Shown here piece by piece: positions 4,908-30,480 of a stretch of 64,000 nucleotides of DNA (its first letter is position 1; the number at the start of each line of letters is the position of its first letter). Below the pieces are notes generated by a model. It worked only from the letters and a program-made list of their open reading frames with translations, was not told the origin of the DNA and made no database searches. Position numbers and translations under genes: made by a program. The stretch is from assembly GCA_944331895.1 (NCBI GenBank), contig CALVIX010000002.1:97099-161098 (forward strand), read 5' to 3'. The stretch comes from an uncultured Bacilli bacterium (GTDB taxonomy: Bacteria > Bacillota_I > Bacilli_A > RF39 > UBA660).

Positions 4908-5444
4908 TTAATCATACCAAGTCATAATATCTTCTAATTCTTTTCTAGGTCTTGGACTAGGTAATTCATCATAATACCCAAGTGCTACTGTCGCACTCAG
5001 TCTCATGCCATCCATATGATAGCATTCTCTTAGTTCATCTTCGATGATGTATGTCATTCGAATCCATACACTACCAATTCCAAGTTCCGTCGCAGTTAAA
5101 AGCATGTTTTCAATCGCAGCACCAATCGACTGCTCCATATTGATTACACTTTCTTCTGGCATCGTATTAAATACTAAAATCAAAGTATTAGCTCTTCTCA
5201 CAGTGCGAGAAGTAGGTTCTGCTGTCATCGTACTTTCATCTTTCTTCATTTTATCTACCATCATTTGATAGACATGTTCTACTTGTTCATTTTTTAGTAC
5301 GACAAAGTGCCACGGCTGCATATTTTTAGCAGAAGGTGCTAAACGTGCACTTTCTAAAATTTTCATAATATCTTCGTTCGAAATGTTCTTCTCATTAAAT
5401 TTGCGAATACTTCTTCGATTTTTAATCGCTTCCTGTAATTCCAT
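4908..5444 (-). CDS. Nitroreductase family flavoprotein
   Basis: RRSIRKF, APSAKNMQPWHFVV, ENMLLTATELGIGSVW, PRPRK; stop overlaps hisS RBS. Confidence 0.92.
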   Translation of the reverse strand: MELQEAIKNRRSIRKFNEKNISNEDIMKILESARLAPSAKNMQPWHFVVLKNEQVEHVYQMMVDKMKKDESTMTAEPTSRTVRRANTLILVFNTMPEESVINMEQSIGAAIENMLLTATELGIGSVWIRMTYIIEDELRECYHMDGMRLSATVALGYYDELPSPRPRKELEDIMTWYD

Positions 5445-5705: not shown

Positions 5706-6263
5706 CTATATCTCTTGTATATAATAATTTTGCCTTAATTCACGTACCTTTTTTGGAGATTTCACAACTCCACACGGTAATTCCTGCCCATTGACAATTC
5801 CTAGCTTGTAAAACTCATTTTCATCCCTTTTCTGATAATATCGAAACACAGGATGAATTGATATTCCATCAAAGACATATTGAAGATCGTATAGTTTCCC
5901 ATTTTCTAAATAACATTGTTTTCGAAATAGATGTCCATTATCAAAAGGACTTCCCACCGTCACCTTTAAATCGAGAGGCTCCAATACTCCATTCCGATTT
6001 AATAGTGCGCGATAATGGTAAACGATCGTCATCATACGTTCATCTAATACCTTTTCATCTGGCATTTTTCTTAAATTCCCAGCTTTTATCTCCTGACATA
6101 AAATTAACTGACTCGTCTCTTCTCTACTCATCGTAAGATGCGGTAAGTAAGATATATCGGTGCTATCTTCCAATGACATATCTTTGTTTAAAATAAGATC
6201 AGAATTTTTACTAAAAAGCTTTTTTCTAAACTCCTGGTTATATTTCACAATGTTCAATGCCAT
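5706..6263 (-). CDS. Hypothetical protein, signal-less paralog of the two lipoproteins at 6343 and 9567
   Basis: Shares YLP..MS.EET.QL..., Y..F.GI.I...YQK.E...Y and G.V.S..K..EL motifs; own TTGACA-N17-TACTAT promoter and GAGGGG RBS. Confidence 0.75.
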   Translation of the reverse strand: MALNIVKYNQEFRKKLFSKNSDLILNKDMSLEDSTDISYLPHLTMSREETSQLILCQEIKAGNLRKMPDEKVLDERMMTIVYHYRALLNRNGVLEPLDLKVTVGSPFDNGHLFRKQCYLENGKLYDLQYVFDGISIHPVFRYYQKRDENEFYKLGIVNGQELPCGVVKSPKKVRELRQNYYIQEI

Positions 6264-26725: not shown

Positions 26726-26944
26726 CTAGTCCATATACTTAGTCATTGCCTTCAGCGTTTGTTTTACCTGTTTTTGACTTGGAGTTCTCCCCATCTGCGA
26801 CATCATCGCACGAATCATCTGTTCGTTGATAGGTGGATTTTTCTTCATATATTTTTTCATATAATTACGAGCGATAAAAAATCCTACAATTGCTCCTGCG
26901 ATGAAACCACCTAAAACTTGTAATAAATCTATCACAAATGCCAT
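26726..26944 (-). CDS. yneF: YneF (UPF0154) family small membrane protein
   Basis: GFF.AR.YM......NPPINE.MIR.MM.QMGR.PS. Confidence 0.95.
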
Positions 26945-26974: not shown

Positions 26975-27421
26975 CTAAATATTGCCTATCTTTTCAACTC
27001 CTATTTTATTATATGAAGTCTTTCTGATTTCATGATAGTATTTTGAAAGCCAAAAATAATCTTGGTTATAAAAGTCACAGACAAATAAATCTCTACTATA
27101 GTAGTAAAAAGAGCGAAAAATAAGAGGAAAATTCGAATTCGTTCTCACGATACAACAAGACGACTGGATCTGAACTAGATTTCCTTTTGGAAAACGAAAG
27201 ATACCGTTTTGTGGCTGTAATTGAAATTTCCCCGAAAGATAGAAATTTAAAATATCTTGATCGAAGTGGTTACAAACTTGATCGTAAAAAGAAATTCCAT
27301 AACGTCCATAGTGTTTCGGCATTAAAAATAAATGGTGGAGTAACTGATATAAAGCTTTTGGTTTTTCTTCATAATACGTAATACACTCTCTTTTGATATG
27401 AAAAATATAATAAGTTCTCAT
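26975..27421 (-). CDS. sirA: Sporulation inhibitor of replication SirA
   Basis: MRTYYIF.IK N-terminus, C-terminal F..DF....YFWL; position between tkt and yneF. Confidence 0.85.
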   Translation of the reverse strand: MRTYYIFHIKRECITYYEEKPKALYQLLHHLFLMPKHYGRYGISFYDQVCNHFDQDILNFYLSGKFQLQPQNGIFRFPKGNLVQIQSSCCIVRTNSNFPLIFRSFYYYSRDLFVCDFYNQDYFWLSKYYHEIRKTSYNKIGVEKIGNI

Positions 27422-27483: not shown

Positions 27484-29469
27484 TTAACGTAATAGTTGTC
27501 GAACTCTTCCATAGATCGTTTCTAAATCAAACCCTTTTTCCTTTAAGACATCCTCCGAAGATCCACTCGCACCAAATTCATTTACCGTAATTAAATATTT
27601 TTCGTTATAGACAAATTGATGCCATCCGAAAGATGAACCTGCTTCGATCACTACTTTTTTATAGCCGATCGGTAACACTTGCTCTTGATATGCTTTTTCT
27701 TGTCGCAAGAAAAGTTCTCTACTTGGCATACTTACAACGCGACAATCGATCTTCTCTTGTACGAGACGTTCCGCTACTTTCATAGCAGTATGAACTTCTG
27801 TCCCTGTCGCTATGATAATTCCGTTTAATTTATTATTTTCTTTTCTAACTACATAAGCTCCTTTTGCCACACTTGATGCATCCGTCGTAGGCAGTACAGG
27901 TACAGCGGTCTTCGAAATAACAAGAGAAACAGGTAAATTTTGATTCAATGTATAATTCCAAGCTCCAACAATTTCTCTAGCATCCGCCGGACGAAATACC
28001 GTCATATTTGGTATAGCTCGAAGCATCGCTAATTGCTCTATCGGTTGATGAGTAGGCCCATCACTACCAATTTCGATAGAATCATGTGTAAATACATAAG
28101 TCACTGGAAGTTTCATTAAAGCTGACATTCGCATCGCTGGTTTTAAATAATCTGCAAACGTCAGAAAAGTAGATCCAAACGGTCTAAAATTAGAAAGCGC
28201 TAAGCCATTTAATATGGCTGCCATCCCGTGTTCCCGAACTCCAAACCAAATATTTCTACCATTGTAATCTTTTTTACTTATATCTTTTTGTCCCAATAAA
28301 TAGGCATTTGTAGAGGATGCAAGATCGGCACTTCCTCCAACAAAATTAGGAACTAATTTAGAAATATCCGTCATAATTGTCTGGTTTGTATTACGTAAAG
28401 GTTCTGCATCGATCGAGCGAAAATCCCATTCGTATTTTAATAAATCAACAGACGTTTGTTTTCCAAAGATGAAATTAAATTCATCATCTTTTTCTACTGT
28501 GCGATCCGCAGTAAATTCGCGATATTCACTAGCCCACTCATCGTATTTTGCTCGGCTATGCGCAACGATCAATTTCTGAAATTCCGTTTGCAAAGCACTA
28601 GAATAACTAAACTCTTCATTCGTCAAATTTAAACTTGCTTTCCACTGAGCAATATCTTCGTCAGATAATGGTTTTCCATGAACTTTATTCGTACCTTCCG
28701 CTAAAGAACCACGTCCAATCACAGTTCGAATCTCTATGAAAGACGGTTTCCCTGATTCTTTTGCCTTTTCGATCGCACGATCGATTTCATGAACGTCTTC
28801 TCCATCTTTTACAAACTCCGTATGCCATCCCATCGCATGAAAACGTTCTCTTGTGTTCTCGGTAAAAGTATGTTCCGTACTACCATCCAAACTAACACGA
28901 TTAGAATCATATAAAACGATTAAGTTGTCCAAATTGTGACTTCCTGCAAATGAACAAGCTTCGTAACTAACGCCTTCCATTAAATCACCGTCGCCGCATA
29001 AAACATACACTCTATGATCCAACATCTTTCGATTTTCTTTTTTCTTCGCTAGTGGATGCAGTTGATACCGCGTCTCTAAAATTTTACCGCCTAAAGCCAT
29101 TCCAACAGCACTAGCGATCCCTTGTCCCAATGGACCAGTTGACATTTCAACACCCGAAGTTAACCCGTATTCAGGATGCCCTGGGGTTTTCGAATGAATC
29201 TTTCGAAACGACTTTAAATCATCGATCGTAAGTGGGTAACCGGCCATAAACATCGTCGCATATAGAAGTGCGGATCCATGACCAGCACTCATCACAAAAC
29301 GATCGCGATTGACCCAATTCGGATCGTTTACATTGATATTCAAATGATAAGCAAACAACGTATAGATAATAGGCGCAGCTCCGAGCACAATTCCAGGATG
29401 TCCGCTTCCTGCTTTGTGAATCATATCAATTCCTAACGACTTTATATTACTAATGATATCCTTGTCCAT
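27484..29469 (-). CDS. tkt: Transketolase
   Basis: SGHPG, RDRFVMSAGHGS, TPGHPE, GDGDLMEG, FGVREH, DGPTHQP. Confidence 0.98.
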   Translation of the reverse strand: MDKDIISNIKSLGIDMIHKAGSGHPGIVLGAAPIIYTLFAYHLNINVNDPNWVNRDRFVMSAGHGSALLYATMFMAGYPLTIDDLKSFRKIHSKTPGHPEYGLTSGVEMSTGPLGQGIASAVGMALGGKILETRYQLHPLAKKKENRKMLDHRVYVLCGDGDLMEGVSYEACSFAGSHNLDNLIVLYDSNRVSLDGSTEHTFTENTRERFHAMGWHTEFVKDGEDVHEIDRAIEKAKESGKPSFIEIRTVIGRGSLAEGTNKVHGKPLSDEDIAQWKASLNLTNEEFSYSSALQTEFQKLIVAHSRAKYDEWASEYREFTADRTVEKDDEFNFIFGKQTSVDLLKYEWDFRSIDAEPLRNTNQTIMTDISKLVPNFVGGSADLASSTNAYLLGQKDISKKDYNGRNIWFGVREHGMAAILNGLALSNFRPFGSTFLTFADYLKPAMRMSALMKLPVTYVFTHDSIEIGSDGPTHQPIEQLAMLRAIPNMTVFRPADAREIVGAWNYTLNQNLPVSLVISKTAVPVLPTTDASSVAKGAYVVRKENNKLNGIIIATGTEVHTAMKVAERLVQEKIDCRVVSMPSRELFLRQEKAYQEQVLPIGYKKVVIEAGSSFGWHQFVYNEKYLITVNEFGASGSSEDVLKEKGFDLETIYGRVRQLLR

Positions 29470-29532
29470 ATGTCCACCCTCTCTATTTTACTCTCTTATT
29501 ATTATAGCAAACTTCTAGACAAGAATAAAGTT

Positions 29533-29679
29533 TTATTTTATATCCATCGCTATATAACTATCTTGCGGCTGTTTTGTCGTATCCTCCATCTTTCTTGTTT
29601 GAACTCCGTTTAAATAAGTAATTCCTAAGATGAAAGCAACAAACCCTATCATTATTTTACTTTTCAACATTTCTTTCAT
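29533..29679 (-). CDS. 48-aa single-pass membrane protein, putative SOS-induced (YneA/SosA-position) protein
   Basis: ATG 29679 after GAGAGG; basic N-terminus, one TM (IMIGFVAFILGITYL), short polar tail; LexA box in its promoter. Confidence 0.75.
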   Translation of the reverse strand: MKEMLKSKIMIGFVAFILGITYLNGVQTRKMEDTTKQPQDSYIAMDIK

Positions 29680-29704
29680 ACCTATACCTCTCTTTCGTAC
29701 TTTC

Positions 29705-29733
29705 ATCTTACTACGAACAGTTGTTCGTGTCAA
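29705..29733 (-). promoter_or_regulatory. SigA promoter with a LexA box filling the spacer
   Basis: TTGACA-cgaacaactgttcgtag(17)-TAAGAT. Confidence 0.88.
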
Positions 29734-29814
29734 TGGTTTTTGTGAACAATTGTTCGTGTTTACACTTTTTTATCACCCTAAACAGAAACATTCGTTCACG
29801 CAAACAATTGTTTG
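29714..29814. promoter_or_regulatory. Cluster of four LexA (Cheo) boxes
   Basis: CGAACAGTTGTTCG 29714-27, TGAACAATTGTTCG 29743-56, GAAACATTCGTTCA 29785-98, CAAACAATTGTTTG 29801-14 versus Firmicute consensus CGAAC-N4-GTTCG. Confidence 0.9.
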
Positions 29815-29840
29815 ACTTGTAAGTAAAAATATGTTATATT
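29812..29840 (+). promoter_or_regulatory. lexA SigA promoter
   Basis: TTGACT-N17-TATATT with extended TG; -35 overlaps box 4. Confidence 0.8.
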
Positions 29841-29862
29841 GTAAATATAAAAGGAGGTTGCT

Positions 29863-30480
29863 ATGAAAGGTTTGACAAAAAGACAAGATGAAATTTTAAC
29901 CTATATTAAAGAATATGTCGTAAATAATGGATATCCACCAACAGTGAGAGAAATATGCGCTGCGATTGGTGTTTCATCCCCTGCAACAGTACATGCACAC
30001 TTACAAAATCTGGAAAATAAAGGAATGATCAAAAAGGAAGAAACAAAAAATCGTGCAATCGAATTATTAGTAGATAACGAGTTTGCATCTAAAGAAGATT
30101 CGGTCGTAGAAGTTCCACTACTTGGAAAAATTACAGCGGGAAGCCCGATCGAGGCAATTGAACATCCAGATGAATATTTTTCTCTTCCTGCTTATATGAT
30201 TCCAAACAACAAAGAGGTGTTTACTCTCAACGTAAGCGGAGACAGTATGATCAACGCCGGTATTTTCGATGGAGATATCATCGTAATTGAAAAAACAAAT
30301 ACAGCTCGCAACGGTGAAATCGTCGCTGCGATGACAGAAGAAAACGAAGTTACTTTAAAGCGATTCTATAAAGAGGATGGTTACTTCCGATTACAACCTG
30401 AAAACGATACGATGGATCCAATTATCTTAGATCAAGTTACTATCCTAGGAAAAGCAATAGGACTATATAGAAAATTATAA
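29863..30480 (+). CDS. lexA: SOS repressor LexA
   Basis: GYPPTVREI, S.ATVHAHL, cleavage site LGKITAG.P, V.GDSMI.AGI.DGD, catalytic VTLKR. Confidence 0.98.
   Translation: MKGLTKRQDEILTYIKEYVVNNGYPPTVREICAAIGVSSPATVHAHLQNLENKGMIKKEETKNRAIELLVDNEFASKEDSVVEVPLLGKITAGSPIEAIEHPDEYFSLPAYMIPNNKEVFTLNVSGDSMINAGIFDGDIIVIEKTNTARNGEIVAAMTEENEVTLKRFYKEDGYFRLQPENDTMDPIILDQVTILGKAIGLYRKL

Follow-up and report, generated by a model that had tools for sequence, protein, structure and literature searches.

A putatively LexA-repressed gene for a membrane mini-protein opposite lexA: a candidate SOS cell-division inhibitor in gut Bacilli

The gene opposite lexA and its promoter

The stretch of DNA analyzed here, referred to as the window, is 64 kb long and belongs to the genome of a gut bacterium of the genus Candidatus Fimihabitans (assembly of 1.12 Mb in 13 contigs, 33.8% GC). 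Within it, a short gene on the minus strand diverges from lexA, as the original prediction had it, and is followed by the transketolase gene tkt, a 148-aa ORF labelled 'sirA' and yneF (Table 1). The lexA product carries the A-G cleavage site in ITAGSP, the Ser of GDSM and the Lys of TLKRF, and tkt is part of a conserved lexA-(inhibitor slot)-tkt-yneF synteny. The downstream order tkt-sirA-yneF that had been announced stands for tkt and yneF, both recognized by Pfam, whereas the sirA label is weakly supported: the Pfam SirA match covers profile positions 1-137 of 140, but at E=0.19 and 12.6 bits it falls below the 26-bit cut-off, and a remote SirA relative would be odd in a genome of 1.1 Mb. 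Several other genera have similar ORFs of 136 to 143 aa (MR.YY.F.I...), there located immediately downstream of the small gene.

Table 1. Features of the small-gene locus (positions in the window), predicted SOS-regulon sites in the host genome and prophage copies of the gene (contig or locus positions)
Feature	Position	Strand	Basis or remark
lexA	29863..30480	plus	Pfam LexA DNA-binding and S24 peptidase domains
lexA promoter, TTGACT-17-TATATT, extended -10	29812..29840	plus	promoter scan
LexA-like box 4, CAAACAATTGTTTG	29801-29814		overlaps lexA -35 TTGACT
LexA-like box 3, core GAAC-N4-GTTT	29785-29798
LexA box 2, TGAACAATTGTTCG, 1 mismatch	29743-29756		9 nt upstream of -35; pattern search
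-35 of small gene, TTGACA	29733-29728	minus	promoter scan
LexA (Cheo) box 1, CGAACAGTTGTTCG, perfect	29714-29727		fills the -35/-10 spacer (17 nt); pattern search
-10 of small gene, TAAGAT	29710-29705	minus	promoter scan; same geometry in relatives
Shine-Dalgarno, AGAGAGG	29693-29687	minus	7 nt before the ATG at 29679
48-aa CDS, stop included	29533..29679	minus	orthologues share the MKE start
Extended -10 of tkt's own promoter, TGCTATAAT	29509-29501	minus	promoter scan
tkt (transketolase)	27484..29469	minus	Pfam; next gene downstream
'sirA', 148 aa, between tkt and yneF	26975-27421	minus	sub-threshold Pfam SirA match
yneF/UPF0154	26726-26944		Pfam
Predicted SOS-regulon sites, host genome (G000)	C2:68138, C3:43641, C3:14372, C5:22336, C5:25335, C5:53954, C10:10013, C6:63366
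Prophage copy	L100:4001-4150 (G002:C16)
Prophage copies, two	L103:4001-4150 and 4920-5066 (G001:C12)
Prophage copy, viral contig	L140:5001-5147 (IMGVR_UViG_3300029700_000232)
Prophage copies, two	L141:5082-5231 and 6001-6147
Prophage copies	L104:4001-4147; L116:4001-4135

A perfect Cheo box in the spacer of a TTGACA-N17-TAAGAT promoter, with a second box just upstream of the -35 hexamer, had been reported at this locus. Pattern search confirms both boxes, and the promoter scan listed the TTGACA-17-TAAGAT combination independently. Read on the minus strand, box 1 is CGAACAACTGTTCG (29727-29714), with TAG between it and the -10, and box 2, which is kept within the genus, is CGAACAATTGTTCA (29756-29743). 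With at most one mismatch allowed, these two are the only matches in the window, where 1.13 would be expected; they are separated by 15 nt, and both lie in the lexA control region. Two further LexA-like boxes, absent from the original list, were found in the same region: box 3, which has a perfect core in congeners (GAACAGATGTTC), and box 4, the putative lexA autoregulatory operator of the whole family.

The start of the small gene deserves some care. A mechanical ORF list opens it at the TTG of the -35 hexamer (29733), which yields 66 aa, and a 57-aa database call opens it at another in-frame ATG (29706-29704) located within the -10. The objection, raised from the outset, that the listed start is too early is borne out: both of these starts precede any transcript from the small-gene promoter and every orthologue begins at MKE, so that the correct reading is the one of 48 aa, which ends at the TAA at 29535-29533 and gives the product MKEMLKSKIMIGFVAFILGITYLNGVQTRKMEDTTKQPQDSYIAMDIK. 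In ten close orthologue pairs pN/pS ranges from 0.02 to 0.25 (in one pair, formed by two congeners, 10 synonymous changes stand against a single non-synonymous one). Together with the positional survey and its decoys (see below), these ratios rule out a chance ORF or non-gene; judged from sequence, the small ORF truly codes for protein and evolves under purifying selection.

Its product has a basic N-terminus (MKEMLKSK), an uncharged span of 20 residues (9-28) and a polar C-terminal tail (29-48). AF2 models one helix over residues 2-35 (pLDDT 80), followed by a disordered or flexible tail, and in 45 of 46 positional orthologues the N-side is more positive than the C-side, which predicts an N-in/C-out orientation. 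The 48-aa single-TM protein that had been proposed is supported, as a prediction, by the uncharged span, the charge bias and the modelled helix, and we describe the product as a predicted single-pass N-in/C-out membrane protein. Membership of a known protein family was rejected: at E<=10 the product has no Pfam match except a chance DUF, contains no LysM domain and matches no NCBIfam family, and PHROGs and PADLOC gave no family match either.

The host has wall-synthesis genes, with MurF in the window and three SEDS genes in the genome, at C7:8072-9031, C1:79388-80458 and C2:41739-42833, so a septal-wall checkpoint would be meaningful in this organism; the genome also contains one gene for an S41 (CtpA-class) protease. 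A genome-wide scan for the box at no more than one mismatch gave 20 matches. Intergenic boxes precede recA, dinB (IMS), ruvA, recX, xseA, thyX, a peptidase U32 gene and a MutS_I-like ORF (Pfam-confirmed), the last being 125 aa long. Just three perfect boxes exist in the 1.12-Mb genome; that of the small-gene promoter is one of them, and xseA and the peptidase U32 gene have perfect boxes too. Because it precedes recA, dinB, ruvA, recX and xseA, the motif is a credible LexA operator for this host. That the small gene is repressed by LexA and encodes a single-pass membrane mini-protein appears to us close to certain.

A lexA-linked family in small gut genomes

The congeners of this genome are Candidatus Fimihabitans intestinipullorum and an 'uncultured Tenericutes' MAG, and NCBI places the genus under Mycoplasmatota incertae sedis. 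Its family includes 'Acholeplasma sp. CAG:878' and many gut MAGs labelled Bacilli, Tenericutes or Mollicutes, with genomes of 0.8 to 1.3 Mb. Conservation opposite lexA in related genomes was a check named in the original prediction, and we surveyed the regions upstream of lexA across the family, lexA itself being found in 61/61 sampled genomes. An RBS-preceded ORF of 28 to 58 aa (median 48) with one hydrophobic span occupies the strand opposite lexA in 46 of 55 usable genera, and its start lies 115 to 194 nt from that of lexA (median 128.5 in the 46 genera). The same positional test found such an ORF in none of 55 reversed decoys and in 15 of 1100 shuffles (1.4%). One further genus has a small ORF 231 nt from lexA.

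The promoter is conserved along with the gene. When 65-nt promoter windows were searched, a box with at most two mismatches to CGAACNNNNGTTCG was present in 44 of the 46 genera, compared with 0.4% of shuffled windows. As at the window locus, the box of about 26 genera directly adjoins TTGACA and occupies the 17-nt spacer ahead of a TAnAAT-like -10. Downstream, tkt follows the small ORF in fewer than half of the genera, and its place is otherwise taken by a sirA-like gene, a polA-like gene, yneF or another gene. As the downstream gene varies, the small ORF is linked to lexA rather than to tkt. Recognizable homologues occur at 35 named genome loci, and at 30 of these lexA is 124 to 336 nt away.

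Although the sequences diverge fast, their layout does not change: after a basic N-terminus come about 20 uncharged residues and then a polar tail, again of about 20. The last 10 residues follow an alternating-hydrophobic pattern in 41 of 46 genera, as against 53% of shuffled tails. Within the subfamily that begins with MKExLKSK, residues M1, E3, K6, S7, K8 and F13 show no variation and K2 and G19 very little; the best-conserved part of this subfamily is the cytoplasmic N-terminus.

Profile searches extended the family well beyond the sampled genomes. A profile of eight sequences retrieved 45 clusters (90% identity), all unnamed or annotated 'hypothetical protein', and a profile of 40 sequences, run with HMMER on 1.84 billion representatives, retrieved 283 clusters (50% identity) at E<=0.001. 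The best 150 of these 283 matches are 29 to 85 aa long, mostly 42 to 50; the longer ones among them match at their C-terminal end and have extra N-terminal residues before the family start. A relation to longer LysM proteins was considered and rejected, none of the best 150 of the 283 matches being LysM-sized, and no SosA-sized or SosA-like full-length protein was found among these same 150.

The kind of protein is known, its family is unnamed, and public database entries call it 'hypothetical protein'. The word 'new', used of the inhibitor in the original prediction, needs qualifying, as the sequences were already deposited under that label. We found no paper describing this family in the literature searched. 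What this study contributes is a family-wide survey with controls, a genome-scale view of the SOS regulon, the parallel with sosA in synteny and promoter, and the prophage copies; hundreds of metagenomic 'hypothetical proteins', many of them with wrong starts, could be named.

Two departures from the common arrangement were observed. In one subgroup (L108:3816-4141, and also L101, L102, L111 and L113) the LexA-boxed promoter first drives a 62-aa ORF, MEYYTINDIQILTGYPEKK..., which has no family match; its stop overlaps the start of the membrane peptide (ATGA), forming a two-gene operon, and a hairpin follows the peptide gene. In another genus (L063, G011:C1) the slot holds a 222-aa N-terminally anchored protein and no mini-protein.

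Homologues in prophages

Six homologues that are not linked to lexA were examined (in G001, G002, an IMG/VR contig, an ENA scaffold, L104 and L116), and all of them reside in prophage early-lytic operons. On the repressor side these prophages encode a serine integrase, (Abi_2), an ImmA/M78-like protease and an XRE repressor, divergent from a Cro-like gene. The early operon consists of the Cro-like gene, small ORFs, the peptide, sometimes in two copies, and genes for a DnaD-like initiator, Erf, NinB, SSB and a RusA-like protein. The phage-borne peptides are 48-49 aa long; they keep the N-terminal half (MKExLKSK..F..F.LG) and have a different tail, ..VDGLQAQKKDLNGAGTQ.SSQ.. (DLNGAGTQxSSQ). In a tree of 40 members they form one well-supported clade (100/100) on a long branch, the alignment having too few columns to place this clade.

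A position after a cro-like gene is typical of phage kil-type genes, and operons of this sort are switched on at prophage induction. The phage copies share this operon position with lambda Kil, Qin DicB and e14 YmfM/SfiC (bioRxiv 10.1101/2020.11.19.390815) and, like those genes, would be expressed upon SOS-triggered induction. The resemblance stops there: Kil, DicB and YmfM of E. coli are unrelated in sequence and mostly cytoplasmic, whereas the phage copy described here has its homologue in the lexA-linked gene of the host itself. The operon position lends independent, though indirect, support to the idea that the protein acts to hold the host cell when DNA is damaged or a phage develops. Such a host-phage angle is undescribed for YneA and SosA in the literature searched.

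Comparison with known inhibitors and possible function

The Gram-positive SOS division inhibitors YneA, ChiZ, DivS and SosA co-localize with lexA and have a single TM and an extracellular C-terminus, but are otherwise dissimilar; SosA and DivS are devoid of LysM (PMC6851548). The TM of YneA docks on TM7 of FtsW, the YneA TM domain alone localizes without inhibiting, LysM being needed, and structure predictions have suggested FtsW as the target of several other SOS inhibitors (PMC13396833). YneA and ChiZ (of Bacillus subtilis and Listeria, and of Mycobacterium tuberculosis) resemble the 48-aa protein in being SOS-controlled, lexA-adjacent, single-TM and N-in/C-out, but their LysM is absent here, and a domain of that type, at about 44 aa, would not fit in the tail of about 20 residues. 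Since YneA needs its LysM, the 48-aa protein must work differently. The window locus parallels that of B. subtilis, whose order is lexA<->yneA-yneB-ynzC-tkt-sirA-yneF, except that yneB and ynzC are missing from it.

The closest parallel is sosA. Comparator loci were retrieved from the Staphylococcus xylosus group (L137-L139) with a published-sosA-primer pattern, a 25-mer derived from the S. aureus sosA primer having retrieved no locus. In the S. xylosus group the order is lexA<->sosA-ynzC-tkt-yneF and the sosA promoter reads TTGACAT-AGAACAGATGTTCT-GATAAAGT. The slot divergent from lexA is therefore the same (lexA<->X-(ynzC)-tkt-yneF), as is the promoter design, with a LexA box filling the spacer after TTGACA, and SosA too lacks LysM and has one N-terminal TM with a C-tail predicted to be extracellular. 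The two proteins differ in length (77 aa for SosA according to Bojer et al. 2019, PMC6851548, versus 48 aa), in the juxtamembrane Y-E..D-H residues of SosA, which the 48-aa protein does not have, and in the location of what is most constrained, the key residues of SosA being extracellular and the best-conserved part here being the cytoplasmic N-terminus of the MKExLKSK subfamily. Homology to SosA was examined with hhalign and rejected: the family and SosA alignments were paired with a probability of 4.8%, and just the TM was aligned. Of the suggestion that the protein is a LysM-less minimal analogue at the yneA/sosA locus, the lack of LysM (Pfam) and the shared slot (Staphylococcus loci) hold; the small gene is a positional and architectural analogue of sosA without detectable homology. 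SidA and DidA of Caulobacter and DivS of Corynebacterium glutamicum are also very small or LysM-less membrane inhibitors of the late divisome induced by damage (PMC6851548, PMC13396833), but neither their lineages nor their sequences are related to those studied here, and sidA and didA do not lie next to lexA.

Our preferred reading, to which we would give a probability of about 0.6, is that the product of the small gene is induced in the SOS response and inhibits division by acting, in the manner of SosA, on the late divisome. The assignment rests on analogy, because no SosA homology, LysM domain or family match came to light. From position, regulation and architecture we infer division inhibition, and the induction by DNA damage, the division arrest, the target and the turnover are inferred likewise. 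In the undamaged cell, LexA dimers bound to boxes 1 and 2 would block RNA polymerase; upon DNA damage, RecA-stimulated self-cleavage of LexA would free the promoter. The peptide would then be made from an mRNA with a short leader, insert into the membrane and, as SosA and YneA do, use its transmembrane and juxtamembrane helix to bind a component of the late divisome and so delay septation, the most likely target being the FtsW-type septal wall synthase complex. Finally, an extracytoplasmic protease would remove the peptide. SosA and YneA are both turned over by CtpA, and the one S41 protease gene of the host is of the CtpA class. The diverged copies in temperate phages of the same hosts might serve as a brake that keeps the host undivided during phage development.

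A bolder extension of this scheme is that one mini-protein family serves both the host SOS checkpoint and the early programme of temperate phages: a peptide of 44-50 residues with no wall-binding domain would dock its helix on an FtsW-type synthase and thereby stop septal wall synthesis, which would make it the smallest Gram-positive DNA-damage checkpoint effector, and the phage version would keep the docking N-terminal half while its different extracellular tail escapes the tail-dependent proteolysis by which the host recovers, so that the cell stays undivided. In this complete form we consider the idea rather doubtful.

Each lineage seems to have its own, unrelated lexA-linked inhibitor, and for the mechanism of those without LysM the present family provides a natural minimal case, with about 48 residues that form a single helix and a short tail. 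Should it indeed block division, it would set the lower size limit for such an activity in a walled Gram-positive and would be a compact probe or lead for inhibiting SEDS-type wall synthases.

Other functions are conceivable for a small hydrophobic peptide under a LexA box. E. coli tisB and dinQ, which encode type I toxins, are LexA-controlled genes for hydrophobic peptides of this sort, and a protein that folds as a single helix and has no domain pointing to the divisome might, like TisB, be an SOS-induced membrane toxin that lowers the proton-motive force or ATP and leads to dormancy or tolerance; the phage copies would then shut down host energy metabolism. TisB and DinQ are shorter, however, and the protein described here devotes about 40% of its length to a polar extracytoplasmic tail whose C-terminus is patterned, while its N-terminus is conserved. 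Moreover, what marks out the YneA/SosA class is its fixed place opposite lexA (PMC6851548). As weak evidence against a toxin, no antisense promoter-like site was seen within or just after the ORF, and no Rfam match rose above chance or gave a sign of a type I antitoxin RNA. A structured RNA was in fact rejected in this region: a match to the idnO motif at 29683-29872 (+) is full-length but scores 28 bits against a 100-bit cut-off, the motif is the unrelated Streptococcus manX-idnO one, and the match appears to be a chance one driven by the palindromic operators. We regard the toxin as improbable.

Equally improbable in our view is the remaining group of roles, that is, another SOS-regulated membrane function (transporter, membrane protease or envelope repair) or a LexA-controlled uORF that reads through into tkt. 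Function cannot be read from a 48-aa sequence, which leaves room for the former. As to the latter, no terminator was found between the small gene and tkt (29470-29532), so SOS-induced transcripts probably read into tkt and could raise its expression. A leader or uORF for tkt is nevertheless unlikely: an extended -10 promoter serves tkt itself, more than half of the genera have another gene downstream and yet keep the small ORF by lexA, the peptide sequence itself is under purifying selection, and no tkt lies near the phage copies.

Least probable of these readings, the first 25 residues could be a cleavable Sec signal peptide, from which about 23 residues (VQTRK...YIAMDIK) would be released as an SOS signal or antimicrobial; the basic n-region, the 15 to 18 or so hydrophobic residues, the small G, S or A that most members of the subfamily have near position 25 and the conserved C-terminal motif fit this, and Mo and Burkholder are said to have found in 2010 that the N-terminus of YneA is processed, but the 20-residue uncharged span suits a membrane anchor, the hydrophobic core of more distant positional orthologues is not followed by a small-x-small site, the AF2 helix runs past the putative cleavage site to residue 35, and no processing, export or receptor genes are linked.

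Beyond the family, LexA was matched in 12 of 24 sampled genomes of class-level relatives (G037-G060), and it seems to be missing from about half of those lineages. In a genome of the sister family in the same order (L117), tkt lies directly opposite lexA with no small ORF, and in a genome of another family of the class (L118, G049:C43) a 60-aa single-TM ORF has a LexA box in its promoter.
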